Shown in pieces: positions 53,027 through 64,000 of a DNA stretch of 64,000 nt (position 1 is its first letter; every line of letters begins with the position of its first letter). The notes beneath the pieces are model-generated. The model saw only the letters and a list, made by a program, of their open reading frames with translations, was not told the DNA's origin and did no database searches. Made by a program: the position numbers and the translations under genes. This DNA comes from Acidimicrobiia bacterium (GTDB lineage: Bacteria; Actinomycetota; Acidimicrobiia; Spongiisociales; UBA5794): assembly GCA_965216945.1 (NCBI GenBank), contig CBDCGU010000003.1, forward strand, positions 899,868 to 963,867, read 5' to 3'.

Positions 53027-55687
53027 GTGCCCACCTCAGTGCAGCTCTTCGGAGCACCCACGATCGTGCGCGACGGCGAGTCGCCGCGGATCGACACCCG
53101 AAAGGCAGTGGCGATCCTCGCCTATCTCGCCGTCGAAGGGCCCGCGGTGCGGCGCGACCGCCTGGCGTCGCTGCTGTGGCCCGAGTCGTCTCAAGACCGG
53201 GCCCGGGCGGTGCTGCGCCGCACGCTGACGTCACTGCGCCGCGCCGTCGGGCGAGATGCCATTGCCGCCACCCGGGAGACGGTCGCCCTCGTCCCGACGG
53301 CCGTCACCGTCGACTGCATCGAGTTCGCCGAGGCTATGGCGGCCGGTGACCTCGCCACCTCGGCAGCCATCTACCGCGGTGAGTTCCTCGCCGGATTCTC
53401 GCTGCGAGACGCCCCGGATTTCGACGACTGGCACCGTCTCGAATCCGATCGCTTCCGCCACGAGGCGGATCGGGCGCTCGAGGGGCTTGCGGCAAACGCG
53501 GCGGAGCGGGGCCATCTGGCCGAGGCGTTCGCAACCGCGCAGCGTCGCATCAAGTTGGATCCGCTCAACGAGGACGCCTACCGGACGGCGATGCTGCTGG
53601 CAGCGAAGCAGGGCAAGGGCTCCGAGGCCGTGGCGCTCTATCGCACGTGCCTGCGGACTCTCGAGGAAGAGCTGGCGGTGGAACCCCTGCCGGCGACGGT
53701 CGCCGTGTACGAGGCGATCCGGAGGGGGGAGGTGCCGGCCGAACCGCAGCCCCGGCCCTCCGAGCCGCCGCTCGACGCCGCGGCACTGGCGGAACCGGCC
53801 CTCGTCGGGCGAGACGGCGAGCTGGCCCGGCTGGATGCTGCACTCATCACTCCGGGGGGGCGCGCCATTGCGGTCGCAGGCGGCCCGGGTACCGGCAAGA
53901 CCAGACTGCTGGAGACCTGGCGGGGCGAACTCGAAGCCAGGGGACGGCGCGTCGTGCTCATCCGGTGCTTCGACGGAGAGCAGGGGCTTCCCTTCGCCCC
54001 GCTCCTCACCCTCGTGCGCCGTCTGGCGAGCGGGGACGACCCGCTCGCCTCCGAGCTGATACAGCTCCTCGCCGGACCCGACACGGATTCGAGCCACCGT
54101 GACGGACCGGGACGCCGGCTCGCCGCGTTCGAGGCGCTCCTGGCGCTGTTCGCCCGCGAAGGGCTGCGCGGCGGCGTACTCATCGTCGACGACGCCCACC
54201 TCGCCGACCCCTCGAGCCGCGAGTTCTTCACATATGTGGCCCGGAGGGTCGATCTGCTCGACTTGGTGGTGGTGCTGAGTACTGCGCCCGGGCTCGCCAT
54301 GGGGCTCCGCGACGTCGCCCACGAGACCCTGTGGCTCGCTCCCCTCTCGGCCGGCGAGATCCGGCGTCTGGCTGATCTCCTCGCCGTCACCGACGAGAAG
54401 ATCGTGGCCGAGACGGTCGAGACGACGGGAGGGATTCCGGCTCTCGTGCTGGCGAGTCTCCAGCGCAGGGCTCCGGATCGGCCGGCGGCGGTCGCCACGC
54501 CCACACTCGATGCCCTCCCGGAGGCGGTGCGCCAGGTCATGGAAGCAGCCGCGACGGTGGATCGACCCGCCGACATCGCACTGCTCCAGCATGTCGCCGG
54601 CCGCAGCCTGGCCGAGATCGCGGGGGCGGTGGAGACCCTGGTGCAGAACCGCCTCGTCCGCTTCACCGCGGGAGGTACGGTCGAGCCGGCAGCCGCTCAC
54701 GTCGTCGCAGAAGTGCTCACCGGGATCAACCCCGCACGCCGCCGCCTGCTCCACGACCGTGCCGCCGAGCGGCTGCAACGAACTCCGGGCAAGGAGGCCG
54801 AGGCGGCGCGCCATCACCACCTCGCCGGGAACGACGCCGAGGCTGCCCGACTGTACGCAAGCGCTGCCGAACGGGCCGCGATGTCATCGGCCAATGCCGA
54901 GGCTGCCCGGCACCTGGGCCGTGCCCTTGCTCTCGGCCATCCGGACCCCGCGAGGCTGCACACTCTCTTGGGAGATGTGGAGAGCTTCGAAGGCAGGTAC
55001 GCAGGGGCGCGGGCGGCATACGAGAAGGCGGCTGCACTCACGGCAGGGAACGAGCTCGCTCAGATCGAGCACAGGTTGGGTCTGCTGGCCCTGCGTCGCG
55101 GTGACCTGGCGGCGGCCGAGAGCCATCTGCGCTCCGGGCTGCTCGAGCTCGACGACGGCCCGGCGGTTCGATCCCGGATCCTGGCGGCGCTCGCCGTGGT
55201 GAGCGAACGGACGGGGAATACCGAGGAAGCCGGTTGCCTCGGGGCTGAGGCGGTGGCGACCGCATCGGAGTCGGGCGACGTCACGACCGAAGCCCAGGCG
55301 CACAACGTTGCCGGCCTGGCCGCCCTGGCGCGCGGAGATCATGCTTCCGCCGCCCGTGAGCTGCGCGATGCGCTGCGTCTCGGTGAGCTGGCGGGCTCGC
55401 CCGATGCGACGGCGGCAGCCCACAACGGGCTCGGCCTGCTCGCCATGGCACGCGACGATCCGGCCACCGCCCTAGGCCACTTCGAGGCGGCGGTGACGAT
55501 TGTCGAACGAATCGCCGATCGGCACCACCTCGCCGTTGCCCTCAGCAACCTCGGGGACGCACAGCAGGCACTGGGAAAACGTGAGGCTGCCCAGGACGCG
55601 ATCCGACGCTCGGCGACGCTGCTCGCCGACATCGGCGGTCACCCCGCAGAAGGTCGAGCGGGCGTATGGAGCCTCACGAGCTGGTAG
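53027..55687 (+). CDS. SARP/AfsR-family transcriptional regulator (OmpR-type wHTH, BTAD, NB-ARC-like ATPase, TPR)
   Basis: 886 aa. N-terminal SARP DNA-binding and BTAD region, P-loop GGPGTGKT, and C-terminal TPR-like Ala-rich repeats. Confidence 0.85.
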   Translation: MPTSVQLFGAPTIVRDGESPRIDTRKAVAILAYLAVEGPAVRRDRLASLLWPESSQDRARAVLRRTLTSLRRAVGRDAIAATRETVALVPTAVTVDCIEFAEAMAAGDLATSAAIYRGEFLAGFSLRDAPDFDDWHRLESDRFRHEADRALEGLAANAAERGHLAEAFATAQRRIKLDPLNEDAYRTAMLLAAKQGKGSEAVALYRTCLRTLEEELAVEPLPATVAVYEAIRRGEVPAEPQPRPSEPPLDAAALAEPALVGRDGELARLDAALITPGGRAIAVAGGPGTGKTRLLETWRGELEARGRRVVLIRCFDGEQGLPFAPLLTLVRRLASGDDPLASELIQLLAGPDTDSSHRDGPGRRLAAFEALLALFAREGLRGGVLIVDDAHLADPSSREFFTYVARRVDLLDLVVVLSTAPGLAMGLRDVAHETLWLAPLSAGEIRRLADLLAVTDEKIVAETVETTGGIPALVLASLQRRAPDRPAAVATPTLDALPEAVRQVMEAAATVDRPADIALLQHVAGRSLAEIAGAVETLVQNRLVRFTAGGTVEPAAAHVVAEVLTGINPARRRLLHDRAAERLQRTPGKEAEAARHHHLAGNDAEAARLYASAAERAAMSSANAEAARHLGRALALGHPDPARLHTLLGDVESFEGRYAGARAAYEKAAALTAGNELAQIEHRLGLLALRRGDLAAAESHLRSGLLELDDGPAVRSRILAALAVVSERTGNTEEAGCLGAEAVATASESGDVTTEAQAHNVAGLAALARGDHASAARELRDALRLGELAGSPDATAAAHNGLGLLAMARDDPATALGHFEAAVTIVERIADRHHLAVALSNLGDAQQALGKREAAQDAIRRSATLLADIGGHPAEGRAGVWSLTSW

Positions 55688-56324
55688 CCGGCTCCGGTAC
55701 GGGGATATCGAGCCGGCGTCCCCAGGCCCTACCGGGCAACCGTTGCTCCAAATAGCGGATGGCGCGCACCGCTCCCCAGGCGTAAGCGGGAAAGAGGCTG
55801 AGGAACAATGGTGCGTTGAGCCACACTCCCAGGCCTTCGTGGAAGATCTCGTCCCGGACCTCGGGACCGAAGAGACCGAAGAAGCCGATGGCCCCCAGCG
55901 CTCCCACGACGAGCACGGCAGAGCGAACCCGGTAGCGACGCATCCGCCCGGCGGCGGCCAGGATCAAGCCGAGATTCGCACCGGCGAACGCACCGAAGAT
56001 GAGAAGGAATGCCGTGCCGTCGATGGTCATCTCGCGCCGTCCCCCGGTGAGCGAGACAATCCGCATCGCCAGCCGGCTGCCGCCACCGAGGATGATCAGA
56101 CCGGCGAGGCCACCACCGATCAGCCCGGAGAGCACAAGCCTCGGTATGCGACGTACGTACACCAGTGCGAAACCCAGCATGAGCAGCAGGGCGACGGCGA
56201 ACACGAACGTCAGGCCTGGGTTGTTCTCCCCCACGATGGGGCCGAGCACCGTGAGCGGCAAGCCGCCAATCAGGAGCGCGCCGATGGCGAGTTTCTCTCG
56301 TTTGGGATCTGTTGGCAATCGCAT
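55674..56324 (-). CDS. hypothetical integral membrane protein
   Basis: About 216 aa from the internal ATG. 6 Gly/Leu-rich TM segments. Confidence 0.5.
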   Translation of the reverse strand: MRLPTDPKREKLAIGALLIGGLPLTVLGPIVGENNPGLTFVFAVALLLMLGFALVYVRRIPRLVLSGLIGGGLAGLIILGGGSRLAMRIVSLTGGRREMTIDGTAFLLIFGAFAGANLGLILAAAGRMRRYRVRSAVLVVGALGAIGFFGLFGPEVRDEIFHEGLGVWLNAPLFLSLFPAYAWGAVRAIRYLEQRLPGRAWGRRLDIPVPEPATSS

Positions 56325-56449
56325 GGCGCCCACTGTTCCCGGCTCCCGTTCCCGAATCGTTACGAGCCCCGTAGCGCCGGCGCGATCGCCGTCACAGGTC
56401 TGACTTCCGGCCCTACACCCAATCGACCCCCACGACGTAACTTCCAGCC

Positions 56450-57850
56450 ATGCGGCGCCTCTCCAGCTTCGATGCCAACTTCCTCTATCTGGAGTCACCA
56501 ACGTCGCACATGCACGTCGGCTCGCTCGCCATCTACGACACGACGACGGCGGATGGCGACTGGGGTGTGGAGAGGGTCCGCCAGGTCTACGCCGATCGCA
56601 TCCACCTGGTGCCGCAATTCCGGAGACGGATCGCCGAGGTGCCGCTGCAGCTCGACCATCCCCGCTGGGTCGACGACCCCGAGTTCGACCTGAACTGGCA
56701 CATCCGACACATCGCCGTGCCCGGTCCCGGCGGGACCGAGCAGCTCGCCGAGTTGTCGGGTGAGCTGATGGCCACCCAGCTCGACCGGCAGCGCCCGCTC
56801 TGGGAGGTCTGGGTCATCGACGGCGTGGCCGGAGGGCGATTCGCCATCCTGTCGAAGGCGCACCACGCCGCCATGGACGGCAATGCTGGCATCCAGATGG
56901 TCTCGGCCATGTTCGACCTCACCCCTGACGTCCACTCGGTGCCCCAACCGACTCGCCGGTGGGAGCCCGAGCCGGTGCCGGGTGATCTCTCGATGCTGAC
57001 GAAGGCGGCTGGTTCCCTGGCGGTGCAGCCGCTGCGGGCGGCTCGGGCGGCACAGCGCGGGCTCCACGCCCTTCTCACGCGCCGCAAGATCGCGGCAGGG
57101 CGCCACGGCACGGTGGCGTCCACGCTGCCTGCGGGCGCTCCCAAGGTCTCGTTCAGCGCCTCCCTGACCCCGGAGCGCTCGTTTGCGTTCCGCACTCTCC
57201 CGCTCGATGCCGTCAGGGCGGTGCGCCGTGCCACCGGTGCCACGATCAACGACGTCGTCCTCGCCGTGGTCGGCGGCGGACTGCGGAACTGGCTGGCGGA
57301 GCGCTCGGAGAAGGTCGACGGCAGCCTGGTCGCGATGGCCCCGATGTCGTTCCGAGGCGACGCCGGTGTTGCCTCCGACGACAACCAGCTCATGAACATG
57401 TTCATCAAGCTGGCCACCGACATGGAGGATCCGCTGGCACGGCTGGCGTTCATCGCCGACCAGACGGCCAGCGCCAAGGCTCAGTTGCAGGACGGCGAAG
57501 GCGATCCGGTGCGAGAGCTCAGCGCGATGGCCCCGGCCACGGTCACGGCGCACCTGTTCCGCTACGCCGCAGCACACCACCTCGCCGACCGAATGACACC
57601 GCTGTTCAACCTCACGATGTCCAACCTGCGCGGCTCCCCCACTCCGCTGTTCCTCGGTGGGGCGCTCATGGTGGCCAACTACCCGCTGGCGCCGATCTAC
57701 GACGGCAACGGCCTCAACGTCACGGTCATGAGCTACCTCGACCAGGTCGACGTCGGCGTTGTCGGATGCCCCCAGCTCACCCCGGACGTGGACCGCATCC
57801 CCATCCACATGGAGCTGGCCCTTGCGGAGCTCGTGGCACTGACATCCTGA
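56450..57850 (+). CDS. wax ester synthase/acyl-CoA:diacylglycerol acyltransferase (WS/DGAT)
   Basis: 466 aa. Active-site HHAAMDG (HHxxxDG) motif. Confidence 0.9.
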   Translation: MRRLSSFDANFLYLESPTSHMHVGSLAIYDTTTADGDWGVERVRQVYADRIHLVPQFRRRIAEVPLQLDHPRWVDDPEFDLNWHIRHIAVPGPGGTEQLAELSGELMATQLDRQRPLWEVWVIDGVAGGRFAILSKAHHAAMDGNAGIQMVSAMFDLTPDVHSVPQPTRRWEPEPVPGDLSMLTKAAGSLAVQPLRAARAAQRGLHALLTRRKIAAGRHGTVASTLPAGAPKVSFSASLTPERSFAFRTLPLDAVRAVRRATGATINDVVLAVVGGGLRNWLAERSEKVDGSLVAMAPMSFRGDAGVASDDNQLMNMFIKLATDMEDPLARLAFIADQTASAKAQLQDGEGDPVRELSAMAPATVTAHLFRYAAAHHLADRMTPLFNLTMSNLRGSPTPLFLGGALMVANYPLAPIYDGNGLNVTVMSYLDQVDVGVVGCPQLTPDVDRIPIHMELALAELVALTS

Positions 57851-57923
57851 GACCAGGCGGGCTCTCGGGAGCATCCAGAAGCCGGACGACGTCGTCGGAG
57901 AGCCGTGCTCGAGAACCGTGTTG

Positions 57924-58271
57924 TCAGGCTTGGGATTCCTCCACCGCAGCGCCATCGATCGCATCGGCGAGGCTTCGTAGCACGCCGGCGAAGAGAGTTC
58001 CGTTGGCCCTGTAGAGGACCGTCCTCCCCACCCGCTCCGAAGTGACGAGACCTGCCCTCTCCAGTTGGCGTAGATGCCTCGACACGACCGACACGTGGAC
58101 CGGGACCGTCTCGCTGAGCGCTGTCACCGACATCGGCTCGGTGGCGTCGAGCAACCGGATGATGATGTTCATCCTGTTGGGTTCTGCGAGGGCGGCGAAG
58201 AACTCCGGATCGGCGATGGCGCCGAGGTCGCAGCAGTCGACTCCCAGGTCGATATTTGCATGATTCTGCAT
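57924..58271 (-). CDS. ArsR/SmtB-family metalloregulator with CC metal-site motif
   Basis: 115 aa. VDCCDLG resembles the ELCVCDL alpha-3 site, and a winged HTH is present. Divergent from the MMPL gene, with an AT-rich 25-nt spacer. Confidence 0.8.
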   Translation of the reverse strand: MQNHANIDLGVDCCDLGAIADPEFFAALAEPNRMNIIIRLLDATEPMSVTALSETVPVHVSVVSRHLRQLERAGLVTSERVGRTVLYRANGTLFAGVLRSLADAIDGAAVEESQA

Positions 58272-58292
58272 CTTTTGTATTCTAGTGCAAAT

Positions 58293-59396
58293 ATGCAACC
58301 AAGTCGAGGACTGAGTCGGATGGACCGCGCCACTGCGGTGATGTGGATCCTCCTCGTCATGGCGGGAGCCATCTCGGGCGTCGTCGTCTTCGATCGGCTG
58401 GACTCGAGCCTGGACCCCGCACCGTCGTCCGAGGCTGAAGTCGCCGAAGCTCGCCTCGCCGCGATCACGGGCGTCGGGGGCGACGTCGCCATCCTCGTGG
58501 ATGCCGATCCGATGGAGCCCGAGATCAGATCCGCAGTCGCTGCGGGAGTTGCTCGCCTGGCGGAGGCTCCCGGTGTCGTGGAGGTTGCCTCGGGCGTCGC
58601 TGATCCCAGGCTGGTGAGCCACAATGGCACGGCGTTCTTGATCGTCGCCGGCGTGGCACCAGCACTGATGGAAGACCAGGCGGAGGAGCTGCTCACCACG
58701 GTCGACCTGGTCGCCAGTTCCTTGCCGGCCGTCACGAGCGTCGGAGGCAGCGTCGTCCTCGACGAGGAGTTGGGCGCCACGGCCGAGTCCGATCTGATCC
58801 GCGCCGACGCCATCGCCGTGCCTCTGGTGGTGCTCCTCGCCGGGCTGGCACTTGGCAGGCTGCGCACCGCCGTCGTGCCGATGCTGATCGTGATCACGGC
58901 GGTGACGGTCCCGCTCGGAATTCTCCTGGTGCTGTCGCTCGTGACCGACGTCTCGGTGTTCGCAGTGAATGTCGTGACGATGTTCGGGGTGGGGCTGGCG
59001 GTCGATTACGGGCTCTTGATCGGAATGAGATACCGCGAGGAGCGACGCCGCCACGACAACCCGGCCGCCGCTATCGAGGTCACCATGGCCACCGCCGGCC
59101 GGGCCGTCCGCTACTCGGGGGTAACGGTGGCCGCTGCACTGGCGGGGCTCTTGGTGTTCGAGGAGTCGCTACTGCGATCGCTCGCATACGGAGGAATCGC
59201 CGCCGTTGCGGTCGCAGTAACCGCCGCATCGACCATCGTGCCGCTCGTCTTGCGGCGCTATCCCGACATTCTTCCCGTCCGGGCGGCCGCCCCGTCCGAA
59301 TCGGGCGTGCTCAGTCGCATCGCTCGACTCGTCGCACGGCATCCAGCCGAAAACTACTGCTGCTCGCCGCCGTCCAGCATCGGCCGGCCCTCTTGA
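58293..59396 (+). pseudogene. MMPL/RND-superfamily transporter, N-terminal half only (truncated)
   Basis: TM1, a periplasmic loop and TM2-6 with the MMPL hallmark GLAVDYGLLIGMRYREE. The reading frame then runs out of MMPL-like sequence and into an ABC fragment in another frame near 59345. Confidence 0.6.
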
Positions 59397-59695
59397 TCCT
59401 CGACGAACCTTTCAGAGGACTCGATCCGCTGGCCGCGGTCGTGATGCGGCGCATCATGGTGAGCTGGCCCCTGGCCGAAGATCGAGCCTGTCTGGTGGCC
59501 ACTCACGACCTCGACGCGGCAGAACGTCTGTGTGATCGGGTCTTCATCCTGGCCGGTGGACGCATCATCGCTGCCGGAATCCCGAGTCAGATGCTGGAGT
59601 CGAGCGGTGCGTCGAGTTTGGAACAACACTTCATCGAGGTCTCCGGCCTCCGGTCGGCTCTCGATGAAACCGAGCGCATTCTGGAGGTCATGTGA
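59393..59695 (+). pseudogene. ABC transporter ATP-binding protein, C-terminal fragment (Walker B, D-loop, H-loop only)
   Basis: Contains LLILDEP, a D-loop and the ATHDL H-loop. No Walker A, Q-loop or LSGGQ occurs upstream in any frame. The ABC-like sequence starts near 59354. Confidence 0.6.
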
Positions 59696-59982
59696 GGGAA
59701 TCAACACGGACGGAACGGCGGCAGTCGGTCGCGCCCAGGGTGGTCGGCATCGCTCTCGGCTCGCTCGTTGCGGCTATCGGCATCACGCTCGTGGCATTGA
59801 TGGTGTTGTTGTTCGCGGCGGCCGCCTTCGAACTCGACATATCCGCACCGTGGGCAGGAATCGAGGTACGGGGCGGCCCGCAGTTCGGTCTCACCGCCGA
59901 CGGACGTATCGTCGTGCCCATCCTCGTAGTGGCCGCGATCACTGCGGTGATCGCCACGCTCGTCTCTCGTCGGGCCGCATGA
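59692..59982 (+). CDS. small 2-TM membrane protein
   Basis: 96 aa. GTG overlaps the upstream stop (GTGA) and the stop overlaps the permease ATG (ATGA). Confidence 0.45.
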   Translation: MRESTRTERRQSVAPRVVGIALGSLVAAIGITLVALMVLLFAAAAFELDISAPWAGIEVRGGPQFGLTADGRIVVPILVVAAITAVIATLVSRRAA

Positions 59983-61463
59983 CACCTGCGGCGATCGCGG
60001 TTGCGCGGTTGATCGTTCGATCATGGCGCCATGGTCTCGACCGCCTGACGGGGGGGCGAGCGTGGGTGGTATGGATCATGACCGGAGGACTCCTCACAAC
60101 AGCAGTGGTTGTCTGGGTGTTCTCGGCTTCGTTGGCGTCGAAGACGTTTGGTGACGTACTCGCACATGATCCCGCACTCGGTCCAGCGATCCTTCGCTCG
60201 CTCGCCAACAACGCCGCCCTCGTGGCGACGCTGATGATGACGATGCTGATGGTCATATCTCCAAGCGCCGACAGCCTCAACAGGCTGATGGCGATGTCCC
60301 CCATCTCGGCGCGACAGGGCCTGATCGGTCTTGCACTCCCGGCCGGAACCATCATGCTGTTGGTGACGGTGGCGCTCTACGGTGGGCCGGCCGCCGCCAC
60401 GATCGCATCCGGATGGACAGCATCCACCGAGCGACTCTGGGCGTCGATCCTGGTGGTCGCGACCGCGATCTACATCGTCTTGGTCGTAACTGCGGGGTTG
60501 TTGGTGATCGAAGGAACCACCAAGCGATTCCTGCGTCTGCCCCGGCAGTTGGCGCGCATCGTCGCCGCTCTGGTGATGGCGGCTCTTGCGAGTGCCTACA
60601 CGCTGGCGGAGGTCGCGATGCTGACCTCATCGACGCCCGAGTCCCGGCTGACGGTGTCGCCGTTCAACTGGCCGATGCAGGGACTGCACTTCGCAGGGTC
60701 GGAACGAGTCGGCTGGTTCCTGCTCATCATCTCCGCCGCCCTGGCGATTTCGCTCGGAGCCGCCGCCCTCGGCTCTCGGCAGCCGGTCCAAGGTGATATG
60801 GCTGCGATGGCGCCGCTGAGGTCCACGGCGGCACAGCATCCGGCTGTCGCACGATCGCTGTGGTGGCCGTCGGCGATGCAGCTGATCAGGGAGCCGGAGG
60901 TGATGCTCTATCTCGTTGTGTTCTTCGGTGGCTTCGCAGCGCTCTCGATCGCAGGTCAGTTCTCGTCACTCGAGCTGCTTGGCGCCGTCGGTTCCAATCT
61001 GGCGTGGGTCTTGGCCGGTGGCCTTGCGCTGCTCTCGTACGGATTGACCGTCCGAACCCGTTGGGTCACGGACTCGAGCCCGGTCACGGCTCGGCGACTC
61101 ATGACCCATTCGGACCTGACCATCACCACCGTGGTCGGGCTGACGGCCTCGCTGCTCATGGGTCTCGCCCTCGTCGCCACGGGCCGTTTCCCCGCGGTGT
61201 CGGATGTCGCTGCGAGCGTGCTCTTCGGCGTTGTCGTCTTGATCACGATGCGCACCGCCGGTGTCGTGGCACCCTACGACCGCGACGTGCCCCTGTCGGC
61301 GATCTTCCCCCTGACGCTGTCGATCCTCGGAAGTGTTCCCGTACTGTGGGGATTGTCTCGTCTGCCGGCTGGGCGTCCGGCTGTCGCACTGCTTGTGGTG
61401 TGCCTGCTCGCCATCGGCTCCCACCACGTCAATGTCGTGCGAGTCGAGCTGACGCGGCCGTGA
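59979..61463 (+). CDS. ABC-2 type transporter permease
   Basis: About 494 aa from the internal ATG (MTPAAIAV...) with 10-12 TM segments. The track ORF 5-prime extension is Arg-rich and probably not translated. Confidence 0.7.
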   Translation: MTPAAIAVARLIVRSWRHGLDRLTGGRAWVVWIMTGGLLTTAVVVWVFSASLASKTFGDVLAHDPALGPAILRSLANNAALVATLMMTMLMVISPSADSLNRLMAMSPISARQGLIGLALPAGTIMLLVTVALYGGPAAATIASGWTASTERLWASILVVATAIYIVLVVTAGLLVIEGTTKRFLRLPRQLARIVAALVMAALASAYTLAEVAMLTSSTPESRLTVSPFNWPMQGLHFAGSERVGWFLLIISAALAISLGAAALGSRQPVQGDMAAMAPLRSTAAQHPAVARSLWWPSAMQLIREPEVMLYLVVFFGGFAALSIAGQFSSLELLGAVGSNLAWVLAGGLALLSYGLTVRTRWVTDSSPVTARRLMTHSDLTITTVVGLTASLLMGLALVATGRFPAVSDVAASVLFGVVVLITMRTAGVVAPYDRDVPLSAIFPLTLSILGSVPVLWGLSRLPAGRPAVALLVVCLLAIGSHHVNVVRVELTRP

Positions 61464-62230
61464 TGAGATGGAAAGTCCCTTCCGGCCGGATGCGTCTCGC
61501 CGACGGTGTGAAGCTGGAACGCAACATGCTCATCGACGAGGCTCTCGATATCCGCGTCGTTCTCTCGCCGTCGCAAGAGGCGGTGATCCGGAGCCTGCCC
61601 GCCAGGATCACCGACAGCGGCGACGCAGAGACGCGGCACATGTTGCGAGAGCTCGCAGCGGCATTCATCGTCGTGAGGAACGATGCAACCGTTGCAGCCA
61701 ACAGGCGAGTTGACATTCCGGGTACGGCGTTCTTCGTCTTGCTGATGCGGATGCTGAGAATCGTCACGGTCCAGCTGTGGTGGCTCGGCATGATCGCGAT
61801 CGTGGCGGCATCGTTGATGATCATGGCGGGATATCGCAGCGCATCGAGCCTCTTGTTCCTCGCCATGCCAGCACTCATCACGATTGGCGGCATCGCCCTG
61901 CACGAGACGGGACACCTCTATGCGGTGCGGCGCACCACCGGCAACGATCTGCTGGGGGTTGTGATCACCCGTCCGATCGGGATCGAAGTGATGCGTCCGC
62001 CGGTTCCTGCCGCGGACAGCACCATCGCCGCGGCGGGCCCGCTGACCCCTTCGGTGGTGGACTCGGTCGGCGCCCTCATCGGTGCTCTGTCTTCTGTGCC
62101 CGTCGTGGTGCTTGCGGGCCTGCTGCTGTCCGTGCACCTCCTGACTCTCCTCCCCTGGCTGCCCGACGGCAAGGAGGTCTGGTCCGGTAGCGTTGCGATC
62201 ATGGACGCGGATGGGAAGGGCGGTGGTTGA
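61463..62230 (+). CDS. site-2-protease-like (M50-type) intramembrane zinc metalloprotease, minimal form
   Basis: 255 aa. HETGH inside a TM helix and LPWLPDG in a later TM resemble S2P motifs A and B. A cytoplasmic N-terminal domain of about 75 aa and no PDZ domain. Confidence 0.6.
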   Translation: MRWKVPSGRMRLADGVKLERNMLIDEALDIRVVLSPSQEAVIRSLPARITDSGDAETRHMLRELAAAFIVVRNDATVAANRRVDIPGTAFFVLLMRMLRIVTVQLWWLGMIAIVAASLMIMAGYRSASSLLFLAMPALITIGGIALHETGHLYAVRRTTGNDLLGVVITRPIGIEVMRPPVPAADSTIAAAGPLTPSVVDSVGALIGALSSVPVVVLAGLLLSVHLLTLLPWLPDGKEVWSGSVAIMDADGKGGG

Positions 62231-62820: not shown

Positions 62821-63603
62821 CTAGTGGTGCGCCTCGTCGTCGAGGGGAAGCACGAGCGGGCAGTCGCGGAACGGGTGGTCGACAACGGCAACCGCTTGGC
62901 CGTAGGCCCGAGTCAGCGTTTCGGCGGTGAGGACCTCCGATGGCGGCCCGGCTGCTGCGGTACGACCGGCGACGAGGAGCACGAGCCGATCGGCGTAGGC
63001 GGACGCCAGGTTGAGGTCGTGGAGCACGACCACCACGGAGCCGCCGCCGTCGGCATGCGCCCGCACCCTGCGCATCACCATCTCCCGATGCCCCAAATCG
63101 AGCGAGGCCGTCGGCTCGTCGAGCAACACCAGGGGGGTCTGCTGTGCCCACACCCGGGCGAGCCCTACCCGCTGCCGCTCGCCGGTCGACAGCGTCCGCA
63201 CCGGCCGATCCGCCAGATGGGCGACATCGGCGCCGGCGATCGCTTCGTCGACGATGGCATCCTCAGTCCCGTCGATGACGAGACCGTCATGGGGGTGCCG
63301 GCCCATCGCCACCACATCCCGCACCGAGAAGAGCACCTCCGACGACTCCTGGGGAGCCAGGTAGGCGCGTCGCCGTGCCAGCTCTGTCAGGGTCAGCTCG
63401 CCAGGTGGCGAGCCTCCCAGGGTCACGGAGCCTTGCTCCGGCGCGAGGTCGGCGGCCATGAGACGCAGCAGGGTTGTCTTGCCGGCACCGTTGGGCCCGA
63501 CGATGGCAACGACCTCGCCCCTCTCGACGGCCATGGTGACGGTGTCGAGAACCCGGACTCCGCCCAGAGTCACGGTGACCCCCGCCAGCTCGATGGCCCT
63601 CAT
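62821..63603 (-). CDS. iron(III)-siderophore/hemin ABC transporter ATP-binding protein (FecE/HmuV-like)
   Basis: 260 aa. Walker A GPNGAGKTT, signature LSTGERQR and Walker B LLDEP. ATGA overlap with the upstream permease. Confidence 0.9.
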   Translation of the reverse strand: MRAIELAGVTVTLGGVRVLDTVTMAVERGEVVAIVGPNGAGKTTLLRLMAADLAPEQGSVTLGGSPPGELTLTELARRRAYLAPQESSEVLFSVRDVVAMGRHPHDGLVIDGTEDAIVDEAIAGADVAHLADRPVRTLSTGERQRVGLARVWAQQTPLVLLDEPTASLDLGHREMVMRRVRAHADGGGSVVVVLHDLNLASAYADRLVLLVAGRTAAAGPPSEVLTAETLTRAYGQAVAVVDHPFRDCPLVLPLDDEAHH

Positions 63604-64000
63604 CGCAGCCACCTGTGGCGCCGTGCCAAGGCCCAGACGAAGACCGGACCCCCGAGACCGGCGGTGAGCAGACCGACCGGGATCTCGACCGGGGCGGCCA
63701 CGGTCCGGGCGAGCGTGTCCGCCAGCACGACAACCGAGGCGCCACCGAGAGCCGCCAGTGGCACGAGCCACCGGTGCGTCGGTCCGATGACCCAGCGCAG
63801 CAACAAGGGAACGACGAGGCCGACAAACCCGACGACTCCGGCCAGACTCACCGCAGCGCCGGCGGCCAGTCCGCAGCCGGCAAGTGTGATCCCGGCCAGC
63901 CGATCCACGTCGATGCCGAGATGGCGAGCCTCCCATTCCCCGAGCGCCAGGATGTCGAGGCGCCTCGCCACCCCCCACACGAGTGCCGCACCCGCCACGC
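63600..64000 (-). CDS. FecCD-family iron-siderophore ABC permease (C-terminal part, runs off the window edge)
   Basis: The C-terminal TM segments are typical of FecCD/BtuC permeases. Confidence 0.75.
   Translation of the reverse strand, partial: VAGAALVWGVARRLDILALGEWEARHLGIDVDRLAGITLAGCGLAAGAAVSLAGVVGFVGLVVPLLLRWVIGPTHRWLVPLAALGGASVVVLADTLARTVAAPVEIPVGLLTAGLGGPVFVWALARRHRWLR

Follow-up and report, generated by a model that had tools for sequence, protein, structure and literature searches.

An out-of-frame junction between the 5' part of an MMPL transporter gene and the 3' part of a rare-cassette ABC ATPase gene in an Acidimicrobiia bacterium: a probable deletion scar

How does a gene that opens as an MMPL-type transporter come to run, out of frame, into the final part of an ABC ATPase gene? 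The question is raised by a locus of an Acidimicrobiia bacterium (Actinomycetota, Spongiisociales, UBA5794; assembly GCA_965216945.1) that lies in a window of 64,000 nt of contig CBDCGU010000003.1 (positions 899,868 to 963,867 of the forward strand; GC content 67%), and all positions without a prefix refer to this whole stretch. A preliminary description, made from the letters of the window and a list of its open reading frames (ORFs), had read the locus as a deletion scar. MMPL-derived and ABC-derived DNA, both in plus-strand orientation, meet at 59346-59348, a position resolved to about 2 nt either way. The junction is probably a genuine scar of illegitimate recombination, for which a deletion is the simplest origin.

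The left side of the junction is the 5' fragment of an MMPL/RND transporter gene (58293..59348, plus strand), comprising about 352 codons of a protein of roughly 600 or more residues. Its frame (0 mod 3) opens at ATG 58293, while the corresponding gene call (P0007, 358 aa) starts at ATG 58320; it carries GLAVDYGLLIGMRYREE. The match to the Pfam family MMPL (PF03176; E=6e-28, 98 bits vs a cutoff of 20.5) covers profile positions 30-331 of 333, i.e., one complete RND repeat. The hydropathy of the fragment shows six hydrophobic segments, arranged as transmembrane segment 1 (TM1), an outer (extracytoplasmic) domain of ~135 residues, and TM2-6, after which a cytoplasmic linker follows. The nearest homologues found in a 5.8-billion-protein collection (P0008, P0009, and P0012) are 51%, 44%, and 55% identical, and the complete ones have ~600 aa. 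In the protein alignment the window matches them through LSRIARLVARHPA (...ARLVxRRP), at which point the homologues go on into TM7-12. When five MMPL homologues were aligned by tblastn, four of the alignments ended at 59345 or 59348 and the fifth at 59252, none reaching further, and the homologues extend 150-450 residues beyond the end of the fragment. The claims that this frame holds only the first TM bundle and that MMPL similarity stops near 59345 are thus borne out. The C-terminal half of the transporter was not found in the 64-kb window with the C-terminal halves of three homologues as tblastn queries.

MmpL3-type transporters employ Asp-Tyr dyads that lie in both TM4 and TM10, where the two TM bundles meet (PMC11481577). 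The N-terminal repeat of the window fragment is typical of MmpL3 and the MMPL family in its order of TM1, extracytoplasmic domain, and TM2-6, and the TM4 dyad is kept within GLAVDYGLL (invariant D238/Y239). The fragment differs in lacking TM7-12, the second extracytoplasmic domain, and, together with TM10, the second of the two dyads that MmpL3 uses; the two-repeat, 12-TM architecture with two extracytoplasmic domains is therefore absent.

The right side of the junction is the 3' remnant of an ABC ATPase gene (59348..59695, plus strand; codons 132-246 and the stop). Its frame (2 mod 3 from 59348) reads RKLLLLAAVQHRPALLILDEPFRGLDP / RKLLLLAAVQHRPALLILDEPFRGLDPLAAV...LVATHDLDAAERLCDRV...ATHDL...ILEVM and the stop codon. 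The product aligns without gaps to residues 132-246 of an intact metagenomic orthologue of 246 aa (L012:6938-7678), with 65% identity and E=4e-48, and the Walker B (LLILDEP), D-loop (GLDP), and H-loop (ATHDL) motifs are aligned and conserved, as had been noticed in the preliminary description. PDB matches of the remnant begin just past the signature motif (ABCA7, 2e-18; 1VPL, residues 153-249), and the NCBIfam match to DrrA spans positions 131-231 of 302 (2e-16). The remnant resembles ATP-binding subunits of the DrrA/NodI/ABCA type (ABC-2 class), with which its Walker B, D-loop, H-loop, and C-terminal regulatory tail align; it differs from them in that only residues 132-246 are kept, and the intact members of its own group carry the signature YSHGM, not LSGGQ. 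In an alignment with four intact ATPases of this group, the remnant starts at the residue right after the YSHGM signature. As much as 115 of the 246 residues (47%) is retained, rather than the C-terminal third that had been proposed, and 131 of 246 (53%, 393 nt) is lost, rather than two-thirds. The out-of-frame junction and the truncation of both genes stand as described, and deletion is the most parsimonious way to account for them.

The absence of the upstream part was likewise confirmed. Lenient tblastn with three ABC ATPase queries gave no Walker A, Q-loop, or signature in any of the six frames of 55001-60000, and no ORF containing a Walker A motif was found there. When the first 131-136 residues of two intact ATPases of the group served as tblastn queries, only the Walker A regions of two unrelated ATPases were recovered in the 64 kb (an importer ATPase at ~37.0 kb and an HmuV-type ATPase at ~63.5 kb). 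A candidate upstream extension of the ABC similarity (hmuV residues 132-224 vs 59288 onward) is a chance alignment, since it depends on gaps and falls within the frame proven to be MMPL. Two proteins that start at the same signature Met, P0003 and P0005, were considered as a natural stand-alone family of ABC C-terminal parts and rejected: the P0003 gene begins 74 nt into a 1.1-kb contig, and P0005 sits on a palindromic assembly artefact. The metagenome contig of the latter has its own ABC gene repeated in inverted form at its start (L004:1-300), which mimics the remnant of the window.

At the junction itself (CCA GCC GAA AAC TAC), MMPL homology ends at A352 (GCC, 59346-59348), and ABC homology begins at C59348 both at the protein and at the DNA level (vs L007 and L012), CGA corresponding to R132 of the L012 orthologue; the translated alignment to homologues that had been recommended therefore places the breakpoint at 59346-59348. 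Relative to the ABC frame, the MMPL frame is shifted by +1, and the codon-position GC pattern changes frame at ~59300-59340. What follows in the MMPL ORF is a nonsense tail (59349..59396, plus strand), recognized by three-frame translation and DNA alignment to an intact ATPase gene: ENYCCSPPSSIGRPS, 15 codons of ABC DNA read in +1, and then TGA (59394-59396), which arises from the TTG-ATC (L-I) codons of LLILDEP. Microhomology at the crossover amounts to a few bases at most. No insertion sequence (IS) element, tRNA, or Rfam element was found at the locus (the Rfam and tRNA scans near the junction were empty), and no repeats of at least 20 nt flank the junction.

Deletion is the best reading because no more than 3 nt separate the end of MMPL homology from the start of ABC homology and the missing halves are absent from the 64 kb. 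One deletion between two co-oriented genes would have had its first break just after TM6 of the ArsR-linked MMPL/RND gene, at codon 352, and its second between codons 131 and 132 of the ATPase gene, directly after the YSHGMRR signature; the ends would have been joined out of frame (+1), with a few bases of microhomology at most. The predicted MMPL product would consist of TM1-6 with one of the two Asp-Tyr proton-relay dyads, followed by the 15 nonsense codons. The genes for a small 2-TM protein, a permease, and an HExxH protein would have been left intact without their cognate ATPase and without the upstream region of their own cassette. The other ATPases of the window belong to importer systems only. 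Lacking Walker A, Q-loop, and signature, the remnant cannot, by what is known of the family, bind or hydrolyse ATP, and both fused genes are probably non-functional.

The event looks recent, given that the remnant contains neither a stop nor a gap, retains 30 of the 33 residues invariant in the four intact ATPases, and shows a coding-type GC content at third codon positions (GC3). At the other three columns, L is replaced by V, L by I, and E by A; no indel has entered the remnant, and its coding-like GC3 persists.

Had the two genes once lain far apart in opposite orientation, an inversion with breakpoints in both, or else a translocation, would produce the same junction with no DNA lost, the reciprocal chimera of the ATPase N-terminal and MMPL C-terminal parts then lying elsewhere. 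The window reaches only 4.6 kb downstream of the junction, and the MMPL and cassette genes are never adjacent in the relatives, so that their original adjacency is not established. The missing halves do not occur in the 64 kb, however, no inverted repeat or IS element is present at the junction, and a deletion takes fewer assumptions. The rearrangement is accordingly unlikely, and the missing DNA was probably lost rather than moved.

Several circumstances nevertheless weigh against the deletion. Each tested protein of the window is a singleton at 90% identity, and no MMPL relative exceeds 55% identity; no genome of a close relative is available to show the original form of the locus, how much DNA was lost, and what microhomology was involved. 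MMPL and the cassette were never neighbours in the relatives examined, the good preservation of the remnant would fit continued selection as well, and the junction is known from the assembled sequence alone. Alternatively, an artefact of assembly or sequencing, whether a chimeric join or collapsed sequence in the 4.16-Mb contig, could have produced a junction that the cell does not have, and the palindromic contig of P0005, although unrelated, demonstrates that such errors occur in public data. Such an origin is improbable here: no repeat of useful length lies beside the junction, the source is a single multi-megabase contig, and both flanks are in their native setting, the left one keeping the ArsR regulator and promoter, the right one the cassette partners, whose stop/start overlap is conserved. 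Independent assemblies, moreover, show natural decay of this cassette.

The arrangement might alternatively be functional, whether as a half-size MMPL homodimer, through a -1 ribosomal shift at the junction, or through re-initiation at the TTGA overlap (59393-59396), the latter two giving expression of the remnant and translational coupling to the cassette. The fragment is indeed a clean single RND repeat (TM1-6) with the TM4 Asp-Tyr dyad, and long contigs encode a small number of short MMPL-like proteins (277-446 aa). Those proteins share at most 35% identity with the fragment, however, and all of the closest homologues (44-55% identity) that reach this point continue beyond it, so that the terminus does not correspond to a natural half-size form; the 15 codons at the end of the ORF come from ABC DNA in the wrong frame. 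The stop of the MMPL ORF overlaps the TTG of the 100-aa ORF as which gene callers report the remnant (P0001, from TTG 59393), and the remnant, which is well preserved, in turn overlaps the small gene's GTG with its stop. The TTGA overlap goes back to the L-I codons of LLILDEP and, being shared by L007 and L012, is not an adaptation. No slippery heptamer of the X XXY YYZ type exists at the frame change (GCC GAA AAC), and neither a fusion nor the remnant could be an ATPase without Walker A, Q-loop, and signature. A functional arrangement is, for these reasons, the least probable of the explanations considered.

The left flank of the fragment has kept a regulator gene and a promoter region. A gene for an ArsR/SmtB-type helix-turn-helix regulator of 115 aa (57924..58271, minus strand; Pfam HTH_20, 5e-12, and HTH_5, 2.6e-8) is divergent from the MMPL fragment, and the exact sequence of its product is on record for the source contig. 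An ArsR-like gene likewise stands just upstream of the closest MMPL relative (L001); otherwise, the nearest MMPL homologues lie at contig edges or among unrelated neighbours. Between the ArsR-family gene and the MMPL start, only the divergent promoter region (58252..58295, no strand) is AT-rich. As read from the sequence, it contains a perfect 9-nt inverted repeat, ATATTTGCA (58252-58260) and TGCAAATAT (58287-58295), 26 nt apart, which is a possible ArsR operator. One promoter-like site was found, on the minus strand (58307-58279). Since the left flank keeps the ArsR regulator and the promoter region, residual expression of the cassette would come from the MMPL promoter.

The genes to the right of the remnant, which had been described as still intact, are full length when compared with their homologues (96 vs 90-105 aa, 494 vs 489-505 aa, and 255 vs 275-294 aa), and the codon-position GC profile places the real genes of 58-62 kb all on the plus strand. 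None of the three ORFs belongs to a Pfam or NCBIfam family at curated thresholds. The first encodes a small 2-TM membrane protein of 96 aa (59692..59982, plus strand) with two hydrophobic segments. By tblastn it is 43-45% identical to the small genes of L006/L007, L012, L013, L014, and L015, and a gene in the same position is found in L009 and L010. Its GTG start overlaps the ATPase stop (GTGA at 59692), and L012 has the same ATGTGA/GTG overlap.

The second gene encodes the cassette permease (59979..61463, plus strand; 494 aa, ~12 predicted TM segments), which overlaps the small gene by 4 nt (59979-59982) and is 45% identical to the L012 permease over residues 6-486. It had been labelled an ABC-2 permease, a name for which there is no support from Pfam (no match at E up to 5) or NCBIfam (no match at E up to 1). 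When 1.84 billion representatives were searched exhaustively with HMMER, the result was only 12 relatives, most of ~500 aa and all annotated as hypothetical, from metagenome-assembled genomes (MAGs) labelled Rubrobacter, Coriobacteriia, and others. A profile search of contigs of GTDB representatives with the permease alignment gave no match, and a contig search with the ATPase alignment, which returned mostly generic Walker A matches, revealed the cassette permease at none of 80 loci. The cassette was not found in plasmid searches either, and the MMPL matches there were distant only.

The third gene encodes a membrane HExxH protein of 255 aa (61463..62230, plus strand), the start of which overlaps the permease stop (TGATG at 61463); it is homologous to L008:9502-10386 (E=7e-20) and L010:3888-4715. 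It has a membrane-embedded LHExGHLY motif (LHETGHLY), a GPL motif, and a C-terminal LLPxxxDG motif (LLPWLPDG), the first and last of which are conserved in the three homologous sequences. These motifs recall the site-2 protease (S2P)/M50 family (MJ0392, PDB ID: 3B4R), and the only PDB match of a profile of the three homologues is indeed 3B4R, the S2P of M. jannaschii, with a marginal E=0.017 across the HExxH and GPL motifs. The protein differs from that family in having no Pfam M50 match, and its homologue in L008 bears a PqqD domain that is largely lost in the window protein. PqqD (PF05402) was matched by one of the three homologues (5.6e-9), the gene table placing it at the N-terminus of the L008 product; the window protein has no PqqD match and ~30 fewer residues in that region, so the domain is shortened. 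A single-sequence AlphaFold2 model of the HExxH protein (predicted local distance difference test score, pLDDT, of 51) was too poor for fold comparison, and nothing relevant was found in the literature on PqqD together with M50 in systems for ribosomally synthesized and post-translationally modified peptides. The label of protease given to the protein thus has the motif and the 3B4R profile match on its side and neither Pfam nor NCBIfam; the similarity weakly suggests a distant S2P-like protein.

Intact cassettes in L008, L009, L010/L011, L012, and L014 show what precedes these genes elsewhere: an ATPase of 246-264 aa, always with an unusual YSHGMxKKL signature, immediately precedes the small gene or the permease. 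L010/L011 encode a 50-aa ORF, an ATPase (262 aa), the small protein (91 aa), the permease (496 aa), and the HExxH protein (275 aa), and the window has the same order with the ATPase cut to its 3' part. Except for the final HExxH gene, its order is also that of L009 (ATPase, 264 aa; small protein, 92 aa; permease, 504 aa) and L012 (246, 105, and 489 aa). In L008, an ATPase (251 aa) is accompanied by a permease (505 aa), a PqqD-domain HExxH membrane protein (294 aa), and a 2-TM protein (90 aa). Small ORFs lie ahead of intact cassettes, namely that of 50 aa in L010 and one of 100 aa in L008. The cassettes were delimited at 59692-62230 in the window, L008:7271-10648, L010:1040-4715, L009:4864-7515, and L012:6938-9458. 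The set of YSHGM ATPase, 2-TM protein, ~12-TM permease, and, in three lineages, HExxH protein is a very rare, unnamed cassette, which may constitute a candidate system for peptide processing and export.

The rarity and patchy phylogenetic distribution of the cassette (Rubrobacter, Coriobacteriia, and other MAGs) bear on a further explanation, namely that a horizontally acquired, already 5'-truncated cassette fragment was integrated into the MMPL gene in one illegitimate step with loss of the MMPL 3' half, an intact cassette never having been present in the genome. GC content is 0.64-0.66 over 59.5-62 kb vs 0.69-0.71 in the flanks. Behind the cassette, L012 and L013 share a pair of homologous minus-strand ORFs that look DUF222/HNH-like by eye, and L007 has repeated sequence there. 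On the other hand, the GC dip is small and the codon-position GC of the cassette is host-like. No MMPL C-terminal half is found from 62230 onward, so a simple insertion is excluded and an extra loss would be needed. The integration is therefore quite unlikely, less so than a functional arrangement, and the deletion is preferred.

Decay of the cassette is not confined to the window. Two assemblies, L006 and L007, whose small protein is ~95% identical to that of the intact L012, contain a decayed cassette: the ATPase gene has a 1-nt deletion in codon R130 (CGA CGC to CG CGC) and an internal deletion of microhomology type of ~84 codons, from LILDEPFR to ADEILGAM, and the permease stops after ~230 residues, after which repeated sequence follows. 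In L013, frameshifts affect the small gene and the permease, while L012 and L014 are intact. The cassette thus seems to have been lost repeatedly. In L006/L007:8500-8900, minus-strand ORFs contain repeated peptide strings, and the 104-bp difference between the two assemblies points to a variable tandem repeat of roughly the same size.

The frameshift in L007 (L007:7533-7545 vs window 59345-59350) lies 1-3 nt from the window breakpoint and has the same +1 offset and the same downstream TGA. The post hoc chance of such a coincidence between two independent lesions in a gene of 741 nt is ~1%. Codons 130-132 might be a mutational or recombinational hotspot, or the ATPase might be recurrently switched off under selection, its 3' part being retained to relay translation to the small-protein, permease, and S2P-like genes; in either form the idea is very unlikely. 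If it were true, the downstream genes of the window would now be driven by the ArsR-controlled MMPL promoter.

In kind, the feature is an ordinary chimeric pseudogene. A comparable case is the TbD1 deletion of modern Mycobacterium tuberculosis, in which mmpS6 is lost and mmpL6 cut short. Truncated and chimeric pseudogenes of the TbD1 type share with the window endpoints inside two genes, a truncated MMPL, an out-of-frame fused ORF, the lack of a mobile element, and pieces that are called as coding sequences; in the window, by contrast, the partner is the ABC ATPase of an unrelated rare cassette, and there is no intact sister strain. Gene callers report a 358-aa 'MMPL' and a 100-aa hypothetical protein, which should both be flagged as one chimeric pseudogene, and the permease that follows the remnant is not to be taken for a working ABC exporter. 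The scar would record a recent gene loss in a lineage without sequenced close relatives, and it has drawn attention to a very rare uncharacterised cassette consisting of the YSHGM ATPase, the 2-TM protein, the 12-TM permease, and the PqqD/S2P-like membrane protein.

Two neighbouring loci complete the picture of the surroundings. An SARP/AfsR-type regulator of 886 aa with BTAD, AAA_16, and TPR domains is encoded at 53027-55687, 2.6 kb upstream of the MMPL fragment. The L008 cassette too is adjoined by regulators, of the STAND-type LuxR kind; no evidence was found for a link. Directly downstream of the cassette, on the minus strand (62821-63998), lies an intact ABC importer of the heme/siderophore type that is unrelated to it; its HmuV-like ATPase (62.8-63.6 kb) matches the NCBIfam heme ABC ATPase family (7e-81), and the end of an adjoining FecCD-type permease was read by eye.

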